Made by a program: the position numbers and the translations under genes
Assembly (NCBI GenBank): GCA_963761825.1
Contig: CAVXIH010000010.1
Location: 155,554-219,553, forward strand
Length of the DNA: 64,000 nt
Direction of reading: 5' to 3'
Origin: an uncultured Acidobacteriota bacterium
GTDB taxonomy: Bacteria > Acidobacteriota > UBA6911
Shown here: positions 13,105-27,653 of the stretch, piece by piece
Numbering within the stretch: position 1 is the first letter of the stretch
Layout: each line of letters opens with the position of its first letter
Notes under the pieces: generated by a model
Database searches by the model: none
What the model was told of the DNA's origin: nothing
The model's input: only the letters and a program-made list of their open reading frames with translations

Positions 13105-13863
13105 TTAGTGCCCGGAAATATTCGGCTTTGCTTCCGGACTTGCGCCGGGAGGAGCTTTGGGAGGCGTCGGCGGCGCCAGATTCACGTCATAACCGCTGAT
13201 ATCGGCTTGCGCCGGCATTTCCGCGACCAGCTTCAATGCGCCCATCGGGCAAGTGGTAACGCAAGCCTGTTTGCCGGCAGGGCCGCCCTTTTTGCTGAAA
13301 TAGGGCGTGTGCACGCACAGATCGCATTTGGTCGTTTTCTGTGTCGCTGGATTCCAGATCGGGCGGTGCGGATGGTGCGGACAGGCTTTAACGCAGGACT
13401 GACAGCCGATGCATTTTTCGGCCGTGATCATGCGCACGTTGCCGTTCTCCGCGCTGACATGGCAGGCGCCTGTCGGGCAGCTTCTTACGCACAGCGGGTC
13501 GGGACATTGCCTGCATACGGCGATCTGGATGTCATAGGGATAGCGCGTGAGGACGGAGCGGCTGACCTGAATTCGCGACAATGAAGTGCTGGTCTCTCCG
13601 TCGTGGACCAGGGAACAGGCAAGCATGCAGCTCAGGCACCCCGCGCAGCGGCGGCTGTCGTACACCAGATATCCGGTCGATTTTTCATAGGGATTTTTGG
13701 GCGCTTCGGCGGCCGTCATGGCCACCGCCGCATCCGGTGTAAAGGCGGTTAGAGCTCCGCCCGCAAGGACGGTTCCGCTGCCGATAACAAAATCGCGTCT
13801 GGAAAAATTCTTCTTTTTCTGGGTAGTCTTCTCTCCGGCCATGGATAATACCTCCATCCCCAA
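13105..13863 (-). CDS. Tat-exported 4x[4Fe-4S] ferredoxin-type subunit (DmsB/YdhX-like), partner of the AOR
   Basis: Twin-arginine signal RRDFVIGSG and four Cys clusters (CAGCLSC.., CRQCPDPLC.., CIGCQSC.., CDLC..CVTTCP). Confidence 0.75.
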   Translation of the reverse strand: MGMEVLSMAGEKTTQKKKNFSRRDFVIGSGTVLAGGALTAFTPDAAVAMTAAEAPKNPYEKSTGYLVYDSRRCAGCLSCMLACSLVHDGETSTSLSRIQVSRSVLTRYPYDIQIAVCRQCPDPLCVRSCPTGACHVSAENGNVRMITAEKCIGCQSCVKACPHHPHRPIWNPATQKTTKCDLCVHTPYFSKKGGPAGKQACVTTCPMGALKLVAEMPAQADISGYDVNLAPPTPPKAPPGASPEAKPNISGH

Positions 13864-14223: not shown

Positions 14224-14967
14224 TTGGATTACCGCAATCGAAAAATCAGCACCAGGAATAAGAACCTCAGTGACTTTATATGCCAGCTTGCGGCCGGTGA
14301 GTTTCTGATTCCGACGTTTCAGCGCTTGTTCATTTGGGATCCGGAGCACATCGTCAATCTATGGGACAGCATCTACCGGTGCTATCCGATCGGCAGCATC
14401 CTGTGCTGGAAAACCAAAGTCCGGCTTCATGTCCACAGACAGTTGGGCGGATTTTATCTTCCGGAGGACAACGATTCCGACCAATCGTCACGGTCCTATA
14501 TTCTTGACGGGCAGCAGCGAGCTACGTCCCTGCTTGCCTCTTTTTACGGCGGGACGGGCAGAACCCGGGAGCAGTTTTCATTCGACTATACGCTCTACTT
14601 TGATTTGACCAAGGCGGAATTTTTCTTCGAGAAAGACTATTACAGGCATCGATGGGATGCCGATCCGGCGTTTCTCATTCGCCTGAAAGACGCCCCGGGC
14701 TTGTCGGCGGACTACTGTTGCTCGCTCACTTCTCTGCAGGGATTTTCCGAGTCGGTCAACAAGAATCTTGAGCAGTTGCAGTTTGTTTTTACGGATTACA
14801 GTATTCCCCTGATAAGTCTGGAGGGATACGACATTGCCGGCGTGTGCGGAATTTATGAGCGCATCAATCAGACCGGTGTGCGGCTGACGAATATGGACAT
14901 CCTGATCGCCAGAGGCTTTAAAAATTACGCTACCGTCGTCGAAGAGGATTTTCCCATTTCACAATAA
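14224..14967 (+). CDS. DUF262 (GmrSD N-terminal/ParB-like nuclease domain) protein. Stand-alone at 247 aa, with no DUF1524/HNH partner domain.
   Basis: FQR..W and DGQQR motifs of DUF262. Confidence 0.6.
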   Translation: MDYRNRKISTRNKNLSDFICQLAAGEFLIPTFQRLFIWDPEHIVNLWDSIYRCYPIGSILCWKTKVRLHVHRQLGGFYLPEDNDSDQSSRSYILDGQQRATSLLASFYGGTGRTREQFSFDYTLYFDLTKAEFFFEKDYYRHRWDADPAFLIRLKDAPGLSADYCCSLTSLQGFSESVNKNLEQLQFVFTDYSIPLISLEGYDIAGVCGIYERINQTGVRLTNMDILIARGFKNYATVVEEDFPISQ

Positions 14968-16122: not shown

Positions 16123-17361
16123 TTGATATATACTTGGCCTGCAAGTGAAGCGATTAAGCCAAAGCCAGGAGTGGGAAATTTGGATCGACCAGACATAGTA
16201 CCTGTGACAGATGCCAGAACCTTGCGGCAGTTTATCCGGCTTCCGTGGAAGGTTTATCGCGAGGATCCTTTTTGGGTTCCGCCTCTGATCGTCGACATGC
16301 AGAAGGTGCTCGATAAAACCAAGTATCCCTTTTTCGATCACTCCTGCGCGGATTTATTTATTGCCGTGCGGCATGGCGAGGTGGTCGGTCGCATCGCGGC
16401 CATCCTGAACAACAATCACAATCGCTACCACAACGAAAGCACCGCCTTTTTCGGCTTCTTCGAATCGATTCCCGACCAGGACGTCGCCTCGGCGCTGCTT
16501 GATCGTGCCGCCCAGTGGGCACGGGATCGTGGCATGCATCAATTGCGCGGGCCGATGAATTACTCGACCAATGAAACCGTCGGGACCCTCATTGAAGGAT
16601 TTGATTCCTGCCCCTGCCTCATGATGCCTCACAATCCGCGCTATTATCCCGAGCTGATTGAAAAAGCCGGGTTTGACAAAGCGATGGACCTCTATGCCTG
16701 GTGGTTGCTGACCGAAAAAGGGTTGAATCCCAAAATTATTCGAGTGGGCGAGATGGTTTTGAAGGAGGAAGGAATACGGATTCGTACCATCGACATGAAA
16801 AAGTTTTGGGATGAAGTTGAAGTTCTCAAAAGAATCTATAACGATGCATGGAGCACCAACTGGGGATTTGTGCCCATGACGGATGCCGAATTCGGGCACA
16901 TGGCCAAAGATCTGAAAACGATCGTGGATCCGCGCGTGGTCCTGATCGCGGAAAAAAACGGGGAGCCGGTCGCATTCTCGCTAGCTCTGCCCGATTTCAA
17001 CCAGGCGTTGATAAAGATCAATGGAAGGCTTCTGCCGTTTGGCCTTCCCAAGCTGATCTATTATGGCCGCCATATCCGGCAGGTCCGCGTGCTGGCTCTG
17101 GGAATCGCAAAGAAGGTGCAGAACTGGGGCGGTCTCGGTGCCGCGCTTTATTACGAATCTTTCCGCCGCGGCGTGGCCGCGGGATATCAAAGCTGCGAGT
17201 TTTCCTGGACACTGGAAAACAACGACCTGATCAATCGAAGCATGCGGCTCTTCGGCGCTGAGATTTATAAGCGCTACCGCATATATCAAAAAGCGCTGCC
17301 GACTTTTTCCAGTTCCTCTGCCAGTACATCGACCGCGGTCCGTATTTCCTCTTCGGTGTGA
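16123..17361 (+). CDS. GNAT/FemAB-like N-acyltransferase, a candidate bacterial ceramide synthase (bCerS-like). An alternative TTG start at 16180 follows an AGGAG box.
   Basis: Acyltransferase-like fold signature. Gene context with spt, ACP, acyl-ACP synthetase and a CerR-like reductase. Confidence 0.5.
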   Translation: MIYTWPASEAIKPKPGVGNLDRPDIVPVTDARTLRQFIRLPWKVYREDPFWVPPLIVDMQKVLDKTKYPFFDHSCADLFIAVRHGEVVGRIAAILNNNHNRYHNESTAFFGFFESIPDQDVASALLDRAAQWARDRGMHQLRGPMNYSTNETVGTLIEGFDSCPCLMMPHNPRYYPELIEKAGFDKAMDLYAWWLLTEKGLNPKIIRVGEMVLKEEGIRIRTIDMKKFWDEVEVLKRIYNDAWSTNWGFVPMTDAEFGHMAKDLKTIVDPRVVLIAEKNGEPVAFSLALPDFNQALIKINGRLLPFGLPKLIYYGRHIRQVRVLALGIAKKVQNWGGLGAALYYESFRRGVAAGYQSCEFSWTLENNDLINRSMRLFGAEIYKRYRIYQKALPTFSSSSASTSTAVRISSSV

Positions 17362-18821
17362 GTCGCGCTGATAAAAAACCTCAGCCTGGCGGCATTTTCC
17401 TCGACTGCAGGATGGACGATCGGCTGGACATTAATGCGCCGGGCAGCCATCGCGTGACTCACCTGCATGCTTTGATTCGAGTTGCCGATGATGGCAGGGA
17501 TGACGGCCGCGCCCGCAGACAATCCCGTATTGATTCCCTTGCTGCGGGCAAGGTCGAGAAAAAGTTTCGCTCGCCGGCGCAGCCGTTCGACGATTTCCGG
17601 GTGGCGCTGCATGAGCTCCAGAGATTTCAGCGCAGCGGCCGCATTCGGGGCGGGCATTCCCACAGAGTAGAGAAATCCCGGTGTCGTGTACTTAAGATAG
17701 TGCACAAGCTGCCTGCTGCCCGCGATGTAGCCGCCGCAGCTGGCAAAGGACTTGGACAGCGTCCCCATCCAGAGGTCAACGTCCTGAGGATCGATCCCGG
17801 GATAATGGTGGGCGATACCGCGTCCCGAAGGGCCCAGCACTCCTATGGAGTGTGCCTCGTCGACTATCAGGTTGCATCGAAACCGTTTCTTCAATTCGAT
17901 CAGGCCGGGCAGGTCACAGATATCGCCATCCATCGAAAAAAGCCCTTCAGTACAAATAAGGACTCTCCGGTATTGGCTGCGATACTGCGCCAGCGTCTGT
18001 TCAAGTTCCGTCAGATCGCCGTGTGAAAACGATCGCCGTTTCGCGCCGGATAAATATATTCCCTGAATGATGCTGTCGTGACAAAGAGCATCGTGCAGGA
18101 TCAGGTCATTCCTATCGAACAGGTGGCCGATGGTTGTGACGTTGGTGGCGTGGCCGCTGACAAAAACCACCGCATCCTCCACGCCGATATGCTGCGCGAG
18201 CCCCTGTTCGAGTTCCCGATGAATGGGGCGCTCCCCGGAAACCAGACGGCTGGCCGATACGGATGTTCCGAAACGGTCGGTGGCGTCCTTGGCGGCAGCG
18301 TTGACTTCGGGGTGTCCTGAAAATCCAAGATAGTTGTAGCTTGAAAAATTGAGCATCTCGACGCCATCGATGACGCTCCGGTTTCTTGCGGTCCCGTCAT
18401 GGGCGCGGAAATAGGGATTCTTCAGCCCGATCCGCTCCATTTCCTGAAGCCGCCGTTCGAGGTTTTTAACTTCGGGAAAATCCGCTATATTCCAGCACTC
18501 GGTGGCTGGCGGCGTTGCTTTTTCCGTTGCCGGGTTTTGCTTCGGATCCTGTATTTCACCGGGCGCCGCCTGCTCTGACGGGGACAATCTGCGAACAAGA
18601 TTCAGAAGATCACCCACGCTGCCGAGAGCGGCAACTTCTTCGTCCCTTATGCGTATCGAGAAGTCTTCCTCCAGAAGGCCTATCACCTCCATCACCGCCA
18701 CGGAATCCAGGCCGAGTTCTGAAATCTTTGTTTCCGTGTCAATGTTCCCGAGTTCCTTCAGGCTGATGTTATAAACAGCAGCCTTGAGAACGTGTATCAG
18801 TTCCTGATCCGTGCTTTTCAT
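17286..18821 (-). CDS. spt: Acyl carrier protein fused to a serine palmitoyltransferase-like alpha-oxoamine synthase
   Basis: N-terminal ACP motif GLDSVAVME. PLP-lysine motif GTLSKSF.SCGGY of the KBL/AONS/SPT family. Confidence 0.8.
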   Translation of the reverse strand: MKSTDQELIHVLKAAVYNISLKELGNIDTETKISELGLDSVAVMEVIGLLEEDFSIRIRDEEVAALGSVGDLLNLVRRLSPSEQAAPGEIQDPKQNPATEKATPPATECWNIADFPEVKNLERRLQEMERIGLKNPYFRAHDGTARNRSVIDGVEMLNFSSYNYLGFSGHPEVNAAAKDATDRFGTSVSASRLVSGERPIHRELEQGLAQHIGVEDAVVFVSGHATNVTTIGHLFDRNDLILHDALCHDSIIQGIYLSGAKRRSFSHGDLTELEQTLAQYRSQYRRVLICTEGLFSMDGDICDLPGLIELKKRFRCNLIVDEAHSIGVLGPSGRGIAHHYPGIDPQDVDLWMGTLSKSFASCGGYIAGSRQLVHYLKYTTPGFLYSVGMPAPNAAAALKSLELMQRHPEIVERLRRRAKLFLDLARSKGINTGLSAGAAVIPAIIGNSNQSMQVSHAMAARRINVQPIVHPAVEENAARLRFFISATHTEEEIRTAVDVLAEELEKVGSAF

Positions 18822-18918: not shown

Positions 18919-20640
18919 TCAGCTGAGGACCATGCCTTCTGCCGGAGAGGATTCTGTTACGCTGCCCGGGAATCCGAGCTGGCCCTCTTCAAACAGAGCC
19001 TTGGTTTGCCTGCGCTGCAGTTTGCCGCTGGAAGTTTTCGGAATAGATCCACGCCCGACAAGCACGACCTTGTGCACCGCAAGGCCGAGCGCAGATCGCA
19101 CCTGATTGCCGATTACCAGCGCCAGTTCTTCACTATTCGTCATGGTGGTTTCCGCAATGATTACAAGCTTCTCGGTGGAATCCCCATTGACCGAGAATGC
19201 CACTACACTGCCTTTGCGAATGCCCGCGATTTCTTCGACAATCCATTCGATTGCCTGCGGAGGATAATTGCGACCATTGATAATGACCAGATCTTTCTGC
19301 CTCCCGGAAACATACAGATCGCCGTTGAGGATAAAGCCGAGATCGCCGGTATGGAGCCAGCCTCCCTGCAACAGTTGGCGCGAAGCTTCCGGATTTTGAA
19401 AATATCCAGGAGTAACACTCGGTCCGCGGAAGACAATTTCACCCACCTGGCCTTCCGGAAGCGGTTTGCCTGTGTTGTTCAGGATCCTGATTTCGTGGCC
19501 CGGGAAAGTGCGCCCGCAGGAGACCAGCTCAAATTTCCTCTTCGGATCCGTTACTTCTTCGTCGGAGCCGATGGGACGCGCTATGCTCCTGGTCTCATAG
19601 GCGTGGCGGTCGATTACCAGCTTTTGCATAGGTTTATGCAAATGGTCGAAAGCGATCGCAAGCGTTGCTTCCGCCATCCCATAGCACGGCAGGACCGCAT
19701 TCGGTTTGAGCCCCAGGGGCGCAAAGGCGGCAATAAAGCTTTCCATCGTTTTGGGGTTGATCGGTTCCGCGCCGCAGCCGAGGACGCGCAGACAGGATAA
19801 ATCCGGATTAATGCGAGACGTCTTGGGCGCTCGCTTCGCAGCAAGTTCAAAAGCGAAATTTGGTCCGAAGGTGATCGTTGCGCGATATTTATGGACCGTC
19901 TCCATCCATACGCCGGGATGCTTTACGAACGCAATTGTCGGAATGAATACTACCGGAATTTGCGCGACCATCGTTGCGATCACAAATCCAATGAGACCCA
20001 TATCATGATAGAGGGGAAGCCAGCTTACGGCGCGATCGGTATCCGGGTGAATTTCGAGACTCTTGATGGTTGCCTTTGCGTTGGCAATGAGATTTCTGTG
20101 TGTGACGATGACTCCTCTCGGCGCCGAGGTGGATCCCGACGTGAATTGGAGAAAGCAGGGCTCGTCCGGCCTTGTCCCTGGCTCGTTCAGCGTCAGGTCC
20201 CCCATTTGCTGCAGGGATTCAATGTCCAGAATGCTTTGTAGCGTGGGCACGCGGGAAAGAACAGGCTGAAGCAAAGGAATGAGTTCTTTGGTGGTGAGCA
20301 GCGCTTTTGCGCCGGAGACACGCAAAATGCCAGCCGCTCTGTCGATATAATTATCCAGTCGGCCAAGTGCCAGGGGAGGGTACATAGGAACGGGCATGAC
20401 TCCCATGCTGACCGCCCCAAGGAAAGATAGAACAAAATCTTCCGGGGCGTTCAAAACCAGGGCAAGACGATCCCCTTTCGTCAAGCCGAGTGTTTGAAGG
20501 CACGCACCGAGCCTCTTAGCCTCCCTGCAAGCCTCCGAATAGGACCAGTCGGCGGGCGTGAGGTCGTTGTCAAGGAATGTATAGCCTTTATGCTCTATGT
20601 GCGCAATCGCATCACACGCAGCATTCAGCGTCTCTTCCAT
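18919..20640 (-). CDS. Fatty acyl-AMP ligase / acyl-ACP synthetase (adenylate-forming)
   Basis: 573 aa, ANL superfamily, with a FAAL-like N-terminus. Confidence 0.75.
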   Translation of the reverse strand: MEETLNAACDAIAHIEHKGYTFLDNDLTPADWSYSEACREAKRLGACLQTLGLTKGDRLALVLNAPEDFVLSFLGAVSMGVMPVPMYPPLALGRLDNYIDRAAGILRVSGAKALLTTKELIPLLQPVLSRVPTLQSILDIESLQQMGDLTLNEPGTRPDEPCFLQFTSGSTSAPRGVIVTHRNLIANAKATIKSLEIHPDTDRAVSWLPLYHDMGLIGFVIATMVAQIPVVFIPTIAFVKHPGVWMETVHKYRATITFGPNFAFELAAKRAPKTSRINPDLSCLRVLGCGAEPINPKTMESFIAAFAPLGLKPNAVLPCYGMAEATLAIAFDHLHKPMQKLVIDRHAYETRSIARPIGSDEEVTDPKRKFELVSCGRTFPGHEIRILNNTGKPLPEGQVGEIVFRGPSVTPGYFQNPEASRQLLQGGWLHTGDLGFILNGDLYVSGRQKDLVIINGRNYPPQAIEWIVEEIAGIRKGSVVAFSVNGDSTEKLVIIAETTMTNSEELALVIGNQVRSALGLAVHKVVLVGRGSIPKTSSGKLQRRQTKALFEEGQLGFPGSVTESSPAEGMVLS

Positions 20641-20834: not shown

Positions 20835-21836
20835 CTATAGCCATCCTCGATTCTGGTACCAACGAACTGTTTCGTTTATTCCCCTGGCCAGGTCTGTCGC
20901 AGGGCTGAAACCCAGCGCGGCCAACGCCTTGGATGAATCGCATATCCAGGATGTCTGGAGCAGTTCCCGGACCTTTTGGCTGTTCAGTGTTGCCGGCCGG
21001 CCAGTGACTTTCGCCCAGAGATCTCCCGCGCCGCCTATTGCTTCAGCAAGCCATTGAGGAAAGGAGATCTGCCGATAGTGCTTTCCCAGAGCCTGCGCTA
21101 TCGCGCGTCCGATGTCCTCCCAGGTATAGATCTCCGGGCGGGAGACAAAATAGATCGATCCTGAAGGCGTGTCGCAGTTGCCTGCCTGGATGCAGACAGA
21201 GGCCAAATCATGGACGTGAATCAGGCTGAATCGACGGATCAAGCGTCCCGGCGTGAACAGGCAGCCCCGCTTGATCATGCGGAATGCAAGAAGCGTTTCT
21301 GTGTCATACGGGCCATACACCGCCGAGGGTCGAAGAATCGTGACAGGGAAGGCGTGTGAAAATTGCAGGACTTCCTGTTCAGAAAGAAGCTTGCTCTCTC
21401 CATACCAGGAAATTGGATTTGGCTTGTCCTCTTCGTTCAGCCCCCGGTTGCCCGTGCCGGGTCCTGCGGCAGCCAGACTGCTCATGTGCACAAATCGTCT
21501 CAAATCAGGATTCGTTTCTGCCAGCACTTCCAGAAGAAGGCGAGTCCCTGCCTGATTGACCCGCACATAGTGCTCACGCCGCGCAGCTTTGATCAGTCCG
21601 GCCAGATGATAAACGGTTTGAACTCCGCGCACGGCTTCCCGGATGGAATCCCGGTCGTTCATATCTCCAATTACGAGGCGCACATGCAGTTTTTGAAGCG
21701 CATGGGTATCGCTTGTGTTTCTCACGAGGCATGTAACCTCGTGTCCTCTCTGCAACAGTGCTTCGACAAGATTTCGCCCCACGAAGCCTGTTCCGCCGGT
21801 GACAAGCACACTCCCGTTTGAATTGTCTGTCTGCAT
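20835..21836 (-). CDS. NAD(P)-dependent epimerase/dehydratase-family reductase, a candidate 3-ketosphinganine reductase (CerR-like)
   Basis: VTGGTGFVG Rossmann motif. Start taken at MQTDNSN. Confidence 0.65.
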   Translation of the reverse strand: MQTDNSNGSVLVTGGTGFVGRNLVEALLQRGHEVTCLVRNTSDTHALQKLHVRLVIGDMNDRDSIREAVRGVQTVYHLAGLIKAARREHYVRVNQAGTRLLLEVLAETNPDLRRFVHMSSLAAAGPGTGNRGLNEEDKPNPISWYGESKLLSEQEVLQFSHAFPVTILRPSAVYGPYDTETLLAFRMIKRGCLFTPGRLIRRFSLIHVHDLASVCIQAGNCDTPSGSIYFVSRPEIYTWEDIGRAIAQALGKHYRQISFPQWLAEAIGGAGDLWAKVTGRPATLNSQKVRELLQTSWICDSSKALAALGFSPATDLARGINETVRWYQNRGWL

Positions 21837-22101: not shown

Positions 22102-24235
22102 TTAAAGCAGCAGGACGGAAAGCAGTGTTGCGGGAATCAACCAATAGGCTGTTCCCGCCAATCCCGCGAGGGGTGCCAAGACCAGGCTTGCGAGAACCGA
22201 TCCCATGCATCCGCCGATCAAATCTGCGGCATACAGCGGGGTGATCACTTTCCCTTGATCGCTCACGGCATACAGGCCGGCAAACGCGAATACTCCGGAC
22301 ACGAAGAAACCTGTCAGCGCCAGCAGTCCCAGGATTTCCAGAAGGCCTGCTTCGCCGCCGGAATTTATTTCCAGGCCAATAGCCGCACTTAGCCCTGCAA
22401 ATCCCGTAAACAGCGCAATCCCGAATCCTTTGGAGATACGATGTTGCATCCGAGCGAAGGCAAATGCTCCCAGGGCCAATCCGCCCATGAAGCCTGTGAG
22501 TAGTATCCCAATATCCTGGAAAAGAATGCCGTGCTTGGTCTGATAGTGCAGAAGAAGAATCGTCTCCAATACCATGCCTGCAAATCCCGCCATTCCCGTT
22601 AGCACTGTGCGTTTTATGGACCACGATGAGCGCATCAGCAGCAGGAAGGGCAGACTGAGAACAACCAGGATGAAGGTTTTGCGACCGCCGCTCAATTCGG
22701 GAAATGAAAAATCCCAGAGTATTGAGGAGGGGACGAATTTGGAAAGCCAGATCAGAATCGTGTACTGATAGCAGATGGGCCGGGTATCGGTATTGACCGG
22801 GGCGGTGCCGGATTCGAGAATCCGGGAGATCTCGCGAAATCGGTCGTTGGTATAGATATATCGGAGAAACTTCGCCGAGATAATTCTGGCCCGGATCCCT
22901 CTGTTTTCCAGCCGGGCAACTTGAACGAAAGGGTCCTTTGGCAAAGGATCCATAGATCCAATCACAACATTCGTGCTGCCCGGAATGAAAACAACTTCCG
23001 GAAAGACCGATCTGGCTGCCCTATAGATGCTGACCATTCTGCGCGTAAGCTGTGGAGTCCAGAAGTTTTCCGACGACTGAAGGCTGAATGCGACAATGCC
23101 CTGTGCGTTCAGTTTCGCATGGCATTGTCGAAAGAATTCCCGGGTATAAAAGCGATTTGTCTGTCCGGACGTCGGCTCCGGCATGCCCACCAAAATAAGG
23201 TCATATTTAGGCGCCCGATTGAGGAACCGGCGCGGGTCGTCATAGATAATCCGAACATTGGCGGCGCGAAGGGAGTTTTGTATGTCCAACGGGAGGTGTT
23301 TGGCAACAATGCGGATCAGAGCGGGATTCTGCTCCACATAATCCACCGACTCAGGAGAGTGCAACAGGACTTCGCGAACGGTCCCTTCAATGCCCCCGCC
23401 GAGCACCAGAACCTTTTTGGGATTTGGATGCTGTAAGGCTGCCGGATGGACAAACTCTTCAGCCCGGGTGCCTTCGCTGTCAAACAAAAGGGCGTCGTTT
23501 TCGAATACAGATGTCTGGCCATCCCGGGAAAGAACCGTAATTCTTGAATAGGGAGTATCCCTTGTCTCCACAAGATTCCGGTGGGTCCAGGATGTCATGA
23601 GCCGGTCGAGCGGGGAAGACTTCCAGGCAAGTGCTATCAAAATGCCGATAGCAACCATGGCGGTAAGGCGGAGCCAGCGCGAGCGGCTTCGGCGAAAATT
23701 CAGCAACGACGATCCGGCTGCAACCCCCGCACACAGCAGGGCGATAAAGAAATTCTGACAGCCGAATTTTAAGAAATAGCGTGGCGCAGATTCCTCCTGC
23801 CAATCCCCCCAGGCTTTCGATGCCATAGGCTGTTGCCAGCGACTTTGTCCCTGCCATATACGCCTTGGCCGTCCACTGAAACAGCAGACCAAGAAGCAGT
23901 CCCGCAGGCAGGAGAGAAACACACACAACGCCAATCTGCGTGTGCAGCGGAAGATATCCGCCCGGCACATCGGAAAAGAGAAGGCGGATGGAACGGATGA
24001 AGGCTACATCAACAGGAATGCTGATGGACAATAGCAGAAAAAGAAATTGGATGCTGGAAGAGGACGGAGATTTGGTTTTACGACGCAGCATGGTGCCGCA
24101 GGCGCTGCAAAGCAGCCAGACCCCCAGGGCAAGCGTGTAGATCAACTCAACGCCATAAAAGGCAACGCTGAGTTCCCGGAGCAGCACAGCCTGCGCCAGA
24201 ATGGAGACAAATCCGACGGCGAATAGATATCCCAC
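22102..24235 (-). pseudogene. Spermidine-synthase-like aminopropyltransferase domain flanked by N- and C-terminal polytopic membrane domains. Frameshift near 23740-23760.
   Basis: The N-terminal TM domain is in ORF 23480..24235 and the rest in 22102..23970. LVLGGGIEGTVREVL is SpdS-like. Confidence 0.6.
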
Positions 24236-24237
24236 AT

Positions 24238-25758
24238 TTACCTGAATTGCGATTCACTGAAAACATCTGCCTGAAAGACCTGGAATTTTGCGTTCCGCTT
24301 CCAGCATCCCGCTTGCAGCCCCGCTTTCATACAGAGGTTGTCGAGCATTTCCGCCCGATCCCAATGATTTTCCGTCGCTACCTGTGGAAGGAATACTGCG
24401 GATGTCCCCGCAGCGGACATCAGAACACCATCGCGGCCGACGACGATTTCGTTGGAGGAAGCGATGGCCTTCATGGGAGTCAGAACAGAGATTTCAATTT
24501 CAAGATTTTTCAGTTCATTGATTTCGACAGGCGCAAATCTGGAGTCGCCGAATGCCGACTGCAAAGCCATCGATCCCACCGTTTTACCAAGCGCAGTATC
24601 TCCCGGGATGTGTCCGATGCAGCCCCGAAGCTGTCCGGCCTTTCTGAGCGTAACAAACGCGCCTTGCGGAAAATCCATTCGTGCCGGAAGATTCCGCGCC
24701 AGCGGGAGCGTTTGTGTCGTCAGATACCAGAGGATGGATTCCCTCGCGAATGCGAGCAGAATTTTCTTTTCTGATTTCTGCAGCGGCGTTGCCCGGGAGG
24801 GCGCGGTGGCGCGATTCAAGACAGTCGTATTACTCGGAGTCTTTCCCGGAGCCAGAATGACCGCTCCGTACCCGACAGTGCGCGCAGCGTCATAGCCTAC
24901 CAGGACATCCCCGGAGTTTGCGTAGCCTGCGACCACGGCGCGCGTGGCGCCCAGCGCCTTGGCTGCCGCCATCCCTGCAAGGATTGCGGCTTCCCCGCAC
25001 GCTCTCGTTTCCAGATTAGGCAAGTCCAGAACACGCATCACGGAGGTGACCCGTGAAGGATCCAGGGCGGCAATGGTTGTGAGAGTCAGAGAATCCGCTT
25101 TTTCTGCATTCGTATTCGTCGGATAGTGGGACAAGTCCGAGCTGATCACGATCAACGCCCGCCGGCCCTTTAAAACCTTTCCCAGCGCCTCGCCGAAGCG
25201 CAGGCACATTTTGCTGTCCGGCGGATGGATGATAGCGGGGACAATCCGGGCATTCGGGAAAAGGGTTTGCACAAAAGGAAGCTGAACCTCGATGGAATGC
25301 TCTCTTGTATGAACCTCGCGGTTTCGATTGCAGTCCGTGCACTCGGCCAGCAGGGCGGAGGTGATCTCTTCATCAACCAGGCTGTTGCCCAGAGGAGTGC
25401 GAAAAGAACCATAGTTTCCCAGCGAAATCCCGCTGAAATTCCCTGTTGTGTGATTCACTCCCAGCAGCACAACGACGTCATACGTACGTCCAGCGACCTG
25501 ACGGTATGCGTCCGCACAAATCTGGCCGGAATATATATATCCGGCGTGAGGCACAATGAGGGCGAGCGGCTTCTCCATGGGAATTTCGACAGAATCCTGG
25601 AGATACTGCTGAATGGCAAGCTTCAGCTTCTGCGGATCGGCCGGGTAGAACTGGCCGGCAACCGCCGGCGGCCGTGTGTCGGCCGGCTTGGTGCCGGAGC
25701 CTGCAGATGAAGCCAGAATCACCAGGGCTGCAATGGCAAGAGCCAGGCTTCTTTTCAT
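24238..25758 (-). CDS. Memo1-like (AmmeMemoRadiSam protein B) fused to an AMMECR1 domain (protein A), with an N-terminal Sec-type signal peptide
   Basis: Signal MKRSLALAIAALVILASSA. Memo motif LIVPHAGYIYSG. AMMECR1 motif GQLRGCIGH. Confidence 0.75.
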   Translation of the reverse strand: MKRSLALAIAALVILASSAGSGTKPADTRPPAVAGQFYPADPQKLKLAIQQYLQDSVEIPMEKPLALIVPHAGYIYSGQICADAYRQVAGRTYDVVVLLGVNHTTGNFSGISLGNYGSFRTPLGNSLVDEEITSALLAECTDCNRNREVHTREHSIEVQLPFVQTLFPNARIVPAIIHPPDSKMCLRFGEALGKVLKGRRALIVISSDLSHYPTNTNAEKADSLTLTTIAALDPSRVTSVMRVLDLPNLETRACGEAAILAGMAAAKALGATRAVVAGYANSGDVLVGYDAARTVGYGAVILAPGKTPSNTTVLNRATAPSRATPLQKSEKKILLAFARESILWYLTTQTLPLARNLPARMDFPQGAFVTLRKAGQLRGCIGHIPGDTALGKTVGSMALQSAFGDSRFAPVEINELKNLEIEISVLTPMKAIASSNEIVVGRDGVLMSAAGTSAVFLPQVATENHWDRAEMLDNLCMKAGLQAGCWKRNAKFQVFQADVFSESQFR

Positions 25759-25852: not shown

Positions 25853-27049
25853 TTAGGACCAGACACCTGCAATGGCTCTTCCGCAGAACTTGCAGTTCCC
25901 GCGCACAATATTCAGCTCCGCTATAAAAAAGGAGCTGCGTCGAATCACAACCTTCCCGCATTGGGGGCAGTATGTGTGATTGCCCGGATGGTCCGGCACA
26001 TTCCCGATATAGGCATAGCGAATGCCTTTGCTCATCGCGCAGTTCCGTGATCGCTCCAGTGTCGCCACCGGAGTGGGCGGGAGATGGAGGAGCTGATAAT
26101 CCGGGTGAAACCGCGTGAAATGAATCGGGACATCCGGCCCGATCTCTCCCATGATCCAATCTGCCAGTCCGGCCATCATTTTGTCTGAATCATTCAATGT
26201 CGGGACAACCAGATTGACGATTTCAAGGTGCACGCCGCTTTTGGCTATTTGCCGGATGCTGTTGAGAACCGGTCGAAGCTCCGCGCCGCATACATTGCGA
26301 TAAAAATCCTCGCTGTAACCCTTCAGGTCGATCTTAATCGCGTCCAGGATGCCGCACATTTCCTTCAGGGGTTCGGCGTTCATAAAGCCGCAGCTGATCA
26401 TCACGCAGCGCAGCTTCTGTTTTTTCGCCAACGCAGCGGTGTCGGCCAGATACTCCATAAACACGGTCGGTTCATTATAGGTAAAAGCTACGATAGGAGA
26501 TTGCCGCGCGGATGCCGATCCGACAATTGCGGCAGGCGCTACGAACGGCGTATCGAAATCCTCAGGCCGGGATTGAGAGATTTCCCAGTTCTGGCAGAAC
26601 TTGCAGCGCAACGGACAGCCCGAGGTCGCAAAGGAAAACGCATCGGAGCCTGGAAGGAAATGATAAAAAGGTTTCTTCTCGATCGGATCGATATGGATCG
26701 TTACTGGCCGGCCATAAACCAGGCTGCGCAACTCGCCGTTGACGTTCATGCGGGCGCGGCATTTTCCCCGCTCGCCCGGCTTGATGACGCAGGACTGGGC
26801 GCAGAGAAGGCATTTCACAATCGCATTTTTGCCGGCATGCGCCCCGACTTTAAGTTTTGATTCGGGCTTGTGGCATTGCATGCAGTCGATGCCGGGAGAT
26901 GCCGTGGAAATCCAATAGCGCGCTTTGGGCGCCGACCGGATTAAATCTCCTGTGCGGTCAAAAACCGCGGCTTGGGCAAACGCAAGGGAACTGCCGATTG
27001 TTGATCCGATTTTTGTTGCCGTAATCAGGAACTCACGTCGTGAAATCAT
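25853..27049 (-). CDS. AmmeMemoRadiSam-system radical SAM enzyme (PflA-like) with an N-terminal twin-arginine (Tat) signal extension
   Basis: SRREFLITATKIGSTIGSSLAFAQA Tat signal. CPLRCKFCQN radical SAM motif. The N-terminal C..C..C..GERGKC element is typical of this subfamily. Confidence 0.75.
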   Translation of the reverse strand: MISRREFLITATKIGSTIGSSLAFAQAAVFDRTGDLIRSAPKARYWISTASPGIDCMQCHKPESKLKVGAHAGKNAIVKCLLCAQSCVIKPGERGKCRARMNVNGELRSLVYGRPVTIHIDPIEKKPFYHFLPGSDAFSFATSGCPLRCKFCQNWEISQSRPEDFDTPFVAPAAIVGSASARQSPIVAFTYNEPTVFMEYLADTAALAKKQKLRCVMISCGFMNAEPLKEMCGILDAIKIDLKGYSEDFYRNVCGAELRPVLNSIRQIAKSGVHLEIVNLVVPTLNDSDKMMAGLADWIMGEIGPDVPIHFTRFHPDYQLLHLPPTPVATLERSRNCAMSKGIRYAYIGNVPDHPGNHTYCPQCGKVVIRRSSFFIAELNIVRGNCKFCGRAIAGVWS

Positions 27050-27407
27050 TCGTTCCTTCCCCTGCTACGATAATCCCCTTGTTGATGCGCTGTCAATCCT
27101 GCCTCCGCCTCTTGCGGTTGCTACGACCGTAGTCTTCATCAGGTCGGGGTCGGAATCGAAACGTTCAAGAACAAATCCAATAGCGATATCGACCCTGATA
27201 CCGGCCGCGACTCCGATGCTGAAATTTGCGATAAATGCTTCCGTTTACGTGCTTTTTCGGGTGATCCACGAATCGCGAGAAATTCAGGCGTGCTAATTGG
27301 TCGGACCATGATAAAATCACCCCGTTTTGCAGAGATGAGATGGAACTTCTGCGATATCGGATTCAGTTGGGTTTCATTTCTAATAGAGGAGCGGGGAGGA
27401 TAGCGCG

Positions 27408-27653
27408 ATGGTCGACGAAGATCTAAAATTACAAATTGAAAGGCTTAAGGCTGAGAACGAGGCTCTCAAGAGGTCCACTTCCAAAGGGCTTTCCATGAAA
27501 GTCAGTGAGAAAGGAGCCCTTTCGGTTTATGGTCTGGGCCGATTCCCTGTAACTCTTTATAAAGAGCAATGGCTTCGACTGCTTGATATGACTGAGGATA
27601 TTCGAGGATTCATCAAGCAGAACGAAAGCCAGCTGAGATCCAAAGGGCAGTAG
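27408..27653 (+). CDS. Small hypothetical protein (81 aa) with a coiled-coil N-terminus, divergent from the radical SAM gene
   Basis: GGAGG box 8 nt upstream of the ATG. No family recognised. Confidence 0.4.
   Translation: MVDEDLKLQIERLKAENEALKRSTSKGLSMKVSEKGALSVYGLGRFPVTLYKEQWLRLLDMTEDIRGFIKQNESQLRSKGQ

Follow-up and report, generated by a model that had tools for sequence, protein, structure and literature searches.

Memo and AMMECR1 occur as conserved proteins from archaea to humans, with links to human disease, and Burroughs et al. in 2019 reportedly linked Memo to nucleotide-base and isoprenoid modification. The association of these two proteins with a radical S-adenosylmethionine (SAM) enzyme (hereafter rSAM) was first noted by Balaji and Aravind in 2007 (PMC2034487), and the published prediction for this trio, AmmeMemoRadiSam, is that it modifies RNA bases (PMC2034487, PMC4075521). 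A passage in PMC7159879 also cites Burroughs et al. 2019 as describing 'Memo-Ammecr1 systems'. The trio's biochemical function has gone unexplained since the 2007 association (PMC2034487), and an exported variant would provide new genetic and biochemical handles on it. Here we describe a candidate for such a variant in a 64,000-nt stretch of contig CAVXIH010000010.1 from an uncultured Acidobacteriota bacterium (the whole stretch is called the window), where genes for an rSAM and a Memo-AMMECR1 fusion lie next to a gene for a polytopic membrane protein with a spermidine-synthase-like (SpdS-like) domain. In the searchable literature, which does not cover Burroughs et al. 2019, we found no exported AmmeMemoRadiSam variant, no link to an SpdS-like membrane protein and no resolved function for the trio, which agrees with a preliminary description of this DNA that had called such a system undescribed.

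Judged by their sequences, the three soluble domains are bona fide AmmeMemoRadiSam family members. Their genes are adjacent and match TIGR04335 (A), TIGR04336 (B) and TIGR04337 (rSAM), all above cutoffs (for the Memo-AMMECR1 fusion, 246.3 bits against 26 with TIGR04336 and 167.1 against 99 with TIGR04335), and the metal-ligand motifs of Memo, the RGCIG and DxRF motifs of AMMECR1 and the CX3CX2C motif of the rSAM are all present. Unlike the described trio, however, the rSAM here has a twin-arginine (Tat) signal, in many relatives followed by a CxxCH motif, the fused Memo-AMMECR1 has a signal peptide, and a fourth component, the SpdS-like membrane protein with its major facilitator superfamily (MFS)-like helices, is nearly always co-encoded. 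The RNA prediction assumes cytoplasmic proteins, an assumption that appears not to hold here. We are highly confident that the predicted exported rSAM, the Memo-AMMECR1 fusion and the membrane protein with 14 transmembrane (TM) helices form a conserved functional module. Overall, we lean, if only slightly, towards reading it as an extracytoplasmic AmmeMemoRadiSam variant whose MFS/SpdS-like partner supplies SAM or substrate.

The three genes lie on the minus strand. The Memo-AMMECR1 gene is downstream of the rSAM gene after a gap of 94 nt, its start at 25758 agrees with the start called in a 95%-identical relative (locus L001), and its TAA stop (24240-24238) is followed after 2 nt by the GTG start of the SpdS-like gene at 24235. 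The preliminary description had Memo-AMMECR1 ending at 24238 and the membrane protein starting at 24235 on the same strand, as our open reading frame (ORF) and domain calls also find; its coordinates and domain calls are essentially right, and its 3-bp spacer needs correcting to 2 nt.

The linkage of these genes was assessed from two directions, one of which started from the SpdS-like protein. Twenty-two homologues were aligned and one genome per GTDB species was scanned, giving 585 pattern-matched stretches that encode relatives; the best 80 loci (29-63% identity) were kept, and their six-frame ORFs were searched with the window proteins. Their bacterial sources are Acidobacteriota, Syntrophales/Smithella, Desulfobacterota, Latescibacterota, Ignavibacteriales, Bacteroidota, KSB1, Calditrichota, Eisenbacteria, Chloroflexota, Omnitrophota and Poribacteria, and one locus comes from an Altiarchaeota metagenome-assembled genome (MAG). 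Linkage of rSAM, Memo-AMMECR1 and SpdS-like genes spans at least 10 phyla, being kept in Acidobacteriota, Syntrophales, Latescibacterota, Ignavibacteriales, Bacteroidota, KSB1, Calditrichota, Eisenbacteria, Chloroflexota and the Altiarchaeota MAG, and throughout the loci the recurrent order on one strand is rSAM, Memo-AMMECR1, SpdS-like. Among the 38 species-representative loci with at least 4 kb on each flank, 34 have the rSAM and 33 have Memo/AMMECR1. At least one trio gene accompanies 35/36 closer homologues vs 12/18 distant ones. From the Memo-AMMECR1 stop codon to the start of the SpdS-like gene, the median distance is 13 nt, and 30 of 51 loci have 20 nt or less.

These conservation data put the adjacency far above chance. 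The proposal that Memo-AMMECR1, the rSAM and the polytopic SpdS-like protein act as one functional unit is upheld by the cross-phylum linkage and the short median gap, and this coupling is strongly supported and more general than had been supposed. Comparing gene neighbourhoods across genomes, as the preliminary description had proposed, thus gave a divided answer: the SpdS-like/AmmeMemoRadiSam linkage is conserved, but the linkage to sphingolipid-type genes is not. All-against-all clustering of the neighbouring ORFs found no further conserved partner, giving just generic signalling, short-chain dehydrogenase/reductase (SDR) and thiamine-pyrophosphate-enzyme genes in a few loci.

Two observations on these loci stand apart. 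In the Altiarchaeota MAG (L073, Candidatus Altiarchaeota), a lineage which we take to have a double membrane, the SpdS-like gene, a Tat-signal rSAM gene and a Memo-AMMECR1 gene occur together on an archaeal contig. In five other loci (L060; L061, 4310-5425; L065; L067; L076, 8638-9906), namely Chloroflexota ones without the trio plus one Bryobacteraceae locus with it, the SpdS-like gene is preceded by a gene for a nitroreductase-family protein with an N-terminal membrane part (DUF4405/cytochrome b561-like), perhaps an alternative partner for electron transfer.

Because they depend on SAM and on low-potential electrons, radical-SAM enzymes are generally assumed to work in the cytoplasm. Nevertheless, an SRR[ED]FL-type twin-arginine motif is present in 56 of the 59 rSAMs linked to an SpdS-like gene; of the other three, two genes are truncated or fragmented and one has a Sec-type signal. 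Because the signal is of the Tat type, the rSAM would cross the membrane already folded and carrying its Fe-S clusters. Of the 57 Tat-type linked rSAMs, 38 have a CxxCH motif between the signal and the rSAM core, with a conserved His about 11-18 residues downstream; the motif is absent from most Syntrophales and from a short-extension clade. Together, CxxCH and the conserved His make a candidate bis-His c-type haem site, so a haem role is conceivable where they occur.

The Memo-AMMECR1 protein shows a matching pattern. Of 51 linked homologues, 48 begin with a hydrophobic signal, in many cases including a lipobox-like Cys, so by this measure the protein carries a Sec or lipoprotein signal. Three independent predictions (for the rSAM, for Memo-AMMECR1 and, as described below, for the SpdS-like domain) agree on an outside location, and we consider it likely that all soluble parts are extracytoplasmic. 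The word 'exported', applied to the radical-SAM module from the start, therefore stands, given the conserved signal peptides and the predicted outward position of the SpdS-like domain. If this localisation is right, an RNA-base substrate is excluded for the exported variant, because the enzymes would be outside.

The second, independent scan used a distant rSAM member as its reference and collected 80 loci from metagenome contigs, which were searched with a family hidden Markov model (HMM) for the SpdS-like protein; each rSAM was assigned an export class by a charge-based signal-peptide rule. The SRR[ED]FL-type motif is absent from the signal-less homologues in this sample. Where both flanks reach at least 4.5 kb, an SpdS-like gene is nearby in 14 of 19 loci with an exported (Tat or Sec) rSAM vs none of five with a signal-less one (Fisher p = 0.006); regardless of flank length, the counts are 30 of 58 and 1 of 16. 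In nine loci (L100, L101, L112, L120, L139, L144, L147, L148, L150), the exported rSAM gene adjoins an SpdS-like gene and family HMMs find no Memo or AMMECR1 gene within 7 kb, and the same two-gene form (no Memo/AMMECR1 within about 7 kb) also occurs in L077 and L081. Conversely, four loci (L122, L130, L140, L143) pair a signal-less rSAM with a fused Memo-AMMECR1 that keeps a signal-peptide or lipobox N-terminus, and none of them has an SpdS-like gene nearby. From this distribution we conclude that the membrane protein tracks export of the rSAM, not export of Memo-AMMECR1. In these four loci and in L142, the rSAM and Memo-AMMECR1 would sit on opposite sides of the membrane.

The two-gene form also bears on an alternative in which the rSAM acts as an activase, placing a radical or a post-translational modification on one of its partners, Memo-AMMECR1 or the SpdS-like domain, instead of converting a small molecule. 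The pairing of rSAM and SpdS-like genes is tight even where Memo-AMMECR1 is missing, the secondary NCBIfam matches of the rSAM are the glycyl-radical-enzyme activases YjjW, PflA and NrdG, and a conserved cysteine of AMMECR1 has been proposed as an organic-radical carrier (Balaji and Aravind, PMC2034487). However, all activase matches are far below cutoffs, no glycyl-radical-type motif was noticed in the partners (none was specifically searched for), and the MFS-like transporter part would be left unexplained. We regard this alternative as improbable.

The architecture of the membrane protein was modelled with AlphaFold2 (AF2). The model of P0001, a 710-aa homologue (pLDDT 83.8, pTM 0.83), has 7 TM helices, a soluble domain (residues 205-507) and 7 more TM helices, and both sequence and model thus uphold the original picture of an SpdS-like domain between two multi-TM regions. 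Across 22 sequences, the face that holds both termini has a mean of 12.9 Lys plus Arg residues vs 2.7 on the other, so by the positive-inside rule the SpdS-like domain would face outward. The helices TM1-6 and TM9-14 appear to be repeats of one another: hhalign gives a probability of 92.7% (E = 4.4e-7, 155 columns), a comparison which is weak with 22 close sequences (probability 7%) and significant only with more diverse ones. Both 6-TM repeats begin at the Lys/Arg-rich face, and the protein thus has the two homologous 6-TM bundles of like topology that characterise MFS proteins at the fold level.

Structure comparison points the same way. An AF2 model of the window's own TM8-14 segment (pLDDT 89.4) was compared with the PDB using Foldseek, and nearly all top matches are MFS transporters (query-normalised TM-score, TMq, up to 0.66), including VMAT2, SPNS2 (7YUB), GlpT (1PW4), NorA and AmpG. 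Like these, the protein has two homologous 6-TM halves in the same orientation, and superposition of its C-terminal half on MFS halves gives TMq 0.55-0.66; unlike them, it has no significant MFS sequence similarity, and in place of the central cytoplasmic loop it has a TM hairpin with a 300-residue periplasmic domain. Pfam MFS_1 gives sub-threshold matches in the correct register, and PDB profile searches with each TM region alone gave nothing meaningful. On sequence and model together, then, the architecture is that of an MFS-like 6+6 transporter in which TM7, a predicted outward SpdS-like domain and TM8 take the place of the central loop. Eight polar residues within the TM helices are near-invariant among 75 sequences (Q15, R20, E21, E30, E140, E557, Q565 and D671, the five in the N-terminal membrane region being invariant), so the membrane part is not a mere anchor.

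Two described groups, the 'fused MFS/spermidine synthase' family NF037959 and PRK03612-type SpeE, likewise join MFS-like helices to an SpdS-like domain. The likeness to PRK03612 is a partial match over the last TM helix and the domain, and NF037959 reaches 20.4 bits against a cutoff of 40, with the match limited to the SpdS part. In both, the domain is appended, whereas here it is inserted in the middle (6 TM, TM7, domain, TM8, 6 TM).

The domain itself has the spermidine synthase fold in full. Its only Pfam match, and the only one of the whole gene starting at GTG 24235, is PF01564 (71.9 bits, cutoff 22.9; 6.6e-20). Its best solved relatives are Thermus thermophilus SpeE structures (1UIR/3ANX, profile E = 7e-22), and it shares with these and with Thermotoga maritima SpeE (1INL) an N-terminal beta-hairpin domain and a Rossmann domain. 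Foldseek TM-scores (target-normalised) are 0.74-0.79, with 1UIR, 3O4F and 1INL at 0.72-0.79 and an rmsd of about 3 A. In a HMMER alignment to 1UIR, the acidic residue that binds ribose (E301) and the Asp that binds adenine (D333) are retained, so the domain probably still binds an adenosyl compound. In contrast, GGGIEG stands in place of GGG(D/E)G (GGGEGA in 1UIR), G-M-P-E-P in place of D-x-x-D-P (D-L-T-D-P in 1UIR), and the Tyr-His of the IYHE motif is gone. The domain also differs from SpeE in its place, being inserted between TM7 and TM8 and predicted to face outward. Across 75 family members, the fourth position of GGG-x is never acidic and the first position of the catalytic motif is mostly G, A, N or S, with D in Chloroflexota and a few others; the window's clade has Gly at this catalytic Asp position.

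The simplest alternative would be an ordinary membrane-anchored spermidine synthase whose position beside the AmmeMemoRadiSam genes is without functional meaning. The above-cutoff PF01564 match and the fold of the soluble domain agree with this, as does the label 'spermidine synthase' that JGI gives to homologues, but all NCBIfam aminopropyltransferase equivalogs score far below their cutoffs (NF002956 113 vs 472, NF002010 100 vs 260 and TIGR00417 82 vs 250), the domain is predicted to lie outside, and the cross-phylum linkage is specific to exported rSAMs. We therefore consider this alternative very improbable. More generally, the label 'aminopropyltransferase' used in the preliminary description is doubtful, because the aspartates for catalysis and for recognition of decarboxylated SAM (dcSAM) are replaced; with the low equivalog scores, it is probably wrong, and such an identity is unlikely in the window's clade. 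Hundreds of database entries carry the name 'spermidine synthase' although they probably do not encode aminopropyltransferases. A periplasmic disulphide between the invariant-looking Cys residues C371 and C488 was also considered and was dropped, as the two do not strictly co-vary across the 75 sequences.

How might such a module work? In the periplasm, an exported radical-SAM enzyme would be without SAM and low-potential electrons. We propose that the module works on the outside of the cytoplasmic membrane, where it performs radical-SAM chemistry, and that the MFS/SpdS-like protein supplies what the exported rSAM lacks there: the MFS part would transport SAM, and the degenerate AdoMet-binding domain would hold it or hand it over, or else the protein would supply the substrate. 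Electrons could enter through a c-type haem at CxxCH where this is present, and the substrate would be a periplasmic or membrane molecule, not RNA. SAM delivery is the version we prefer, because the only export-specific component is a transporter-like protein with an outward-facing degenerate AdoMet-fold domain; even so, SAM supply as the protein's specific role is a tentative assignment. The complete four-part machine (SAM export by the MFS part, hand-over by a dead SpdS domain, a haem-reduced Tat rSAM, and Memo and AMMECR1 completing the modification) is, as a whole, doubtful.

If this scheme is right, an extracytoplasmic radical-SAM enzyme would for the first time have a dedicated route of cofactor supply, and Memo and AMMECR1 would gain their first concrete biochemical context. 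How the exported enzyme might obtain SAM and electrons is suggested by the partner protein and the CxxCH motif, and a broadly distributed exported variant tied to a transporter-like protein points to a small-molecule or envelope substrate. The lineages that carry the module are, we presume, largely anaerobes, which would fit an oxygen-sensitive enzyme outside the cell.

A competing account of the same membrane protein is that it exports or presents the substrate, which might be a lipid, a lipid-linked molecule or an amine-bearing envelope precursor, and that the outward domain is an active, re-tooled alkyl- or aminopropyl-type transferase working in series with the rSAM, Memo and AMMECR1. An MFS-like fold with invariant intramembrane charges would suit such a role, lipid and muropeptide transporters (SPNS2, AmpG) are among the PDB matches, and some members may be catalytic since distant ones keep D-L-P-E-P or D-V-P-D-P; in addition, E353, N360, R361 and E366 are invariant or nearly so. 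However, the window's clade lacks the catalytic Asp and no member has the acidic residue of GGGD, an extracellular SAM- or dcSAM-dependent transferase would meet an equal cofactor-supply problem, and presentation alone would not explain why the membrane protein follows export of the rSAM rather than of Memo-AMMECR1. This account, the nearest competitor, is about as probable as SAM delivery: possible, though we would not call it likely.

Several points weigh against an extracytoplasmic variant with a supplying partner, and some concern the linkage. Eight distant SpdS-like homologues have no trio gene nearby, 5 of the 19 well-flanked exported rSAMs have no adjacent SpdS-like gene, L119 has an exported trio with no SpdS-like gene within 7 kb, and L142 (1482-4663) is the reverse case, a signal-less rSAM beside an SpdS-like gene. 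In three or four cases (L086, L099, L104, L113), the partner of the exported rSAM is a Tat-signal DUF362 protein instead. Others concern the biochemistry: 19 of the 57 Tat-type rSAMs have no CxxCH, haem c on a Tat substrate is unusual, and we know of no precedent for SAM export by an MFS/SpdS-like fold. The localisation is predicted from signal-peptide motifs and the positive-inside rule, and the MFS assignment draws on Foldseek matches with weak E-values (0.04-0.4) together with the sub-threshold Pfam matches. The present results would fit SAM transport and substrate transport equally. Finally, the membrane-protein gene is frameshifted in the window, so the system may be inactive in this organism.

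The DUF362 loci deserve a separate remark. In L086 (5745-8137) and L099 (5916-8128), and also in L104 and L113, a gene for a Tat-signal TIGR04337-like rSAM lies directly downstream of a gene for a Tat-DUF362 protein of about 335 aa. None of the four loci has a Memo, AMMECR1 or SpdS-like gene within 7 kb, and by gene content and signals this is a different exported radical-SAM subsystem.

The SpdS-like gene, 24235..22102, is 2134 nt long and not one ORF, contrary to its first description as a single polytopic ORF. Frame 0 stops at 23480, and the remainder of the protein is encoded in the +1 frame (ORF 23970..22102). A DNA alignment with L001 places a one-base insertion, an extra T, at 23772/23771, where the window reads ctatttctTaaaattc and L001 reads ctatttctaaaattc. 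When the frames are joined at ...ATLFLK|FGCQNFF..., the product is a 710-aa protein which is 95% identical to and collinear with P0001 and also collinear with more than 100 homologues of about 710 aa. The eleven other genes common to the window and L001 are all intact in the window. The extra T may be a sequencing or assembly error or a true inactivating mutation. In three long-read-derived MAG contigs (L036, L053, L063), the rSAM, Memo-AMMECR1 and SpdS-like genes are likewise split into multiple ORFs, so frameshifts like that in the window appear common in long-read MAG assemblies. Programmed +1 slippage on AAA-A at the site would restore the frame, but this explanation was rejected as the run of four As is too short.

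Table 1. Features of the module and its neighbours in the window. Abbreviations: ACP, acyl carrier protein; FAAL, fatty acyl-AMP ligase; Spt, serine palmitoyltransferase.
Feature	Position	Strand	Basis or remark
Radical-SAM enzyme, AmmeMemoRadiSam type, 398 aa	27049..25853	-	TIGR04337 364.7 bits (cutoff 220); PF04055 3e-18
rSAM twin-arginine (Tat) signal peptide MISRREFLITATKIGSTIGSSLAFAQA	26969..27049	-	Read from sequence
rSAM CxxCH motif (CMQCH), between Tat signal and rSAM core	26870..26884	-	Candidate c-type haem site
rSAM N-terminal Cys cluster motif	26812..26750	-	Sequence
rSAM CX3CX2C motif	26617..26594	-	Sequence
Memo-AMMECR1 fusion protein, 506 aa	25758..24238	-	PF01875 2e-60; PF01871 3.8e-48
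Memo-AMMECR1 N-terminal signal peptide	25758..25687	-	
AMMECR1 LRGCIG motif	24630..24613	-	
MFS-like/SpdS-like polytopic membrane protein, 710 aa after one-base removal	24235..22102	-	Two frames
N-terminal membrane region: TM1-6, first MFS-like repeat; TM7 leads to soluble domain	24232..23623	-	AF2 helices 2-204
Frameshift site, one extra T vs 95%-identical relative L001	23771..23772	-	DNA alignment
Spermidine-synthase-fold domain, predicted periplasmic	23622..22714	-	PF01564 6.6e-20
GGGIEG motif	23400..23383	-	
GMPEP motif, replaces D-x-x-D-P	23187..23173	-	
C-terminal membrane region: TM8 returns from soluble domain; TM9-14, second MFS-like repeat	22689..22114	-	AF2
SDR/epimerase-family reductase (CerR-like candidate), no signal peptide	21836..20835	-	PF01370 4e-38
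FAAL	20640..18919	-	NF006624 500.6 bits (cutoff 600); PF00501 2e-68
ACP fused to alpha-oxoamine synthase (Spt-like)	18821..17286	-	PF00550 + PF00155
GNAT-like protein, 393 aa, candidate bacterial ceramide synthase	16180..17361	+	PF00583 1.7e-5
Sigma-70-like promoter match TTGACA, 18 nt, TATCGT	27067..27096	-	Just upstream of rSAM start; candidate

Downstream of the module on the same strand lie genes for an SDR, an FAAL and an ACP fused to an alpha-oxoamine synthase (AONS), and domain matches agree with the preliminary description on this point. The SDR probably starts at ATG 21836, as inferred from L001; its best NCBIfam match is HpnA at 157 bits, below the cutoff of 368, and both it and the GNAT-like protein have just generic SDR and GNAT family matches in the libraries. 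The closest PDB relatives of the AONS domain are serine palmitoyltransferases (3A2B/8GUH, 4e-69), and all curated Spt and BioF models are sub-cutoff (e.g., NF047600 at 320 vs 640 and BioF at 346 vs 426). The GNAT-like gene, on the plus strand, is convergent with the ACP-AONS gene, the 3' end of which it overlaps by about 75 nt, an arrangement kept in L001 and L002; the gene itself is conserved in L001, L002, L003 and L005. Plausibly, the SDR, FAAL, ACP-AONS and GNAT-like genes form a ceramide-type cluster.

The closest counterpart is the ceramide cluster of Caulobacter (PMC11087976, PMC11334938); the window likewise groups genes for an ACP-AONS, an acyl-AMP ligase, an epimerase-family SDR and a GNAT-like acyltransferase. 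Caulobacter CerR acts in the periplasm, making ceramide intermediates available outside (PMC11087976), whereas the window's SDR has no signal peptide; moreover, the curated Spt models are sub-cutoff here, and the linkage of the lipid genes to the module is limited to one Acidobacteriota clade.

The preliminary description had coupled the module to these sphingolipid-type genes, and a corresponding mechanism would have the module act on sphingolipid- or ceramide-type lipids and share a transcript, and one lipid pathway, with the SDR, FAAL, ACP-Spt and GNAT genes. The lipid genes are indeed adjacent on one strand in the window and in four Acidobacteriota loci, L001 (95% identity), L002 (58%), L003 and L005, the AONS domain is closest to serine palmitoyltransferases, and the genes parallel those for Spt, ACP, ACP synthetase, CerR and bCerS in Caulobacter (PMC11087976). 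However, adjacency is found only in those loci, i.e., in 2 of the 45 species-representative loci with at least 7 kb downstream, and is already lost in Acidobacteriota relatives at about 54% identity (L007, L011). The module is common in lineages without an Spt-like gene nearby. The gap from the SpdS-like stop to the SDR start is about 265 nt, and the following gaps are about 195 and 97 nt, vs 2 nt inside the module. The loci that keep the lipid genes also keep unrelated K+ channel and GmrSD_N genes in synteny, so the adjacency reflects lineage synteny. A lipid-pathway role is therefore unlikely, and membership of the sphingolipid-type genes in the module is not supported; their position appears to be a lineage-specific coincidence.

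Some smaller features of the region remain to be described. The K+ channel gene is flanked by a GmrSD_N (DUF262) restriction-endonuclease-like gene and a gene for a 4Fe-4S dicluster protein (14224-14967 on the plus strand and 13108-13842 on the minus strand), both syntenic in L001. A scan for promoters and terminators gave counts at or below shuffled expectation in the region, so the TTGACA-18-TATCGT match upstream of the rSAM gene is only a candidate; the same scan saw no terminator between the SpdS-like and SDR genes. An Rfam scan of the whole window gave zero matches, and therefore no SAM riboswitch or other leader. An 81-aa ORF (27408-27653, plus strand), located in the interval from folD to the rSAM gene and divergent from the latter, has a coiled-coil-like look and no family match; it is 95% conserved in L001, and L002 has a small gene at the equivalent position.

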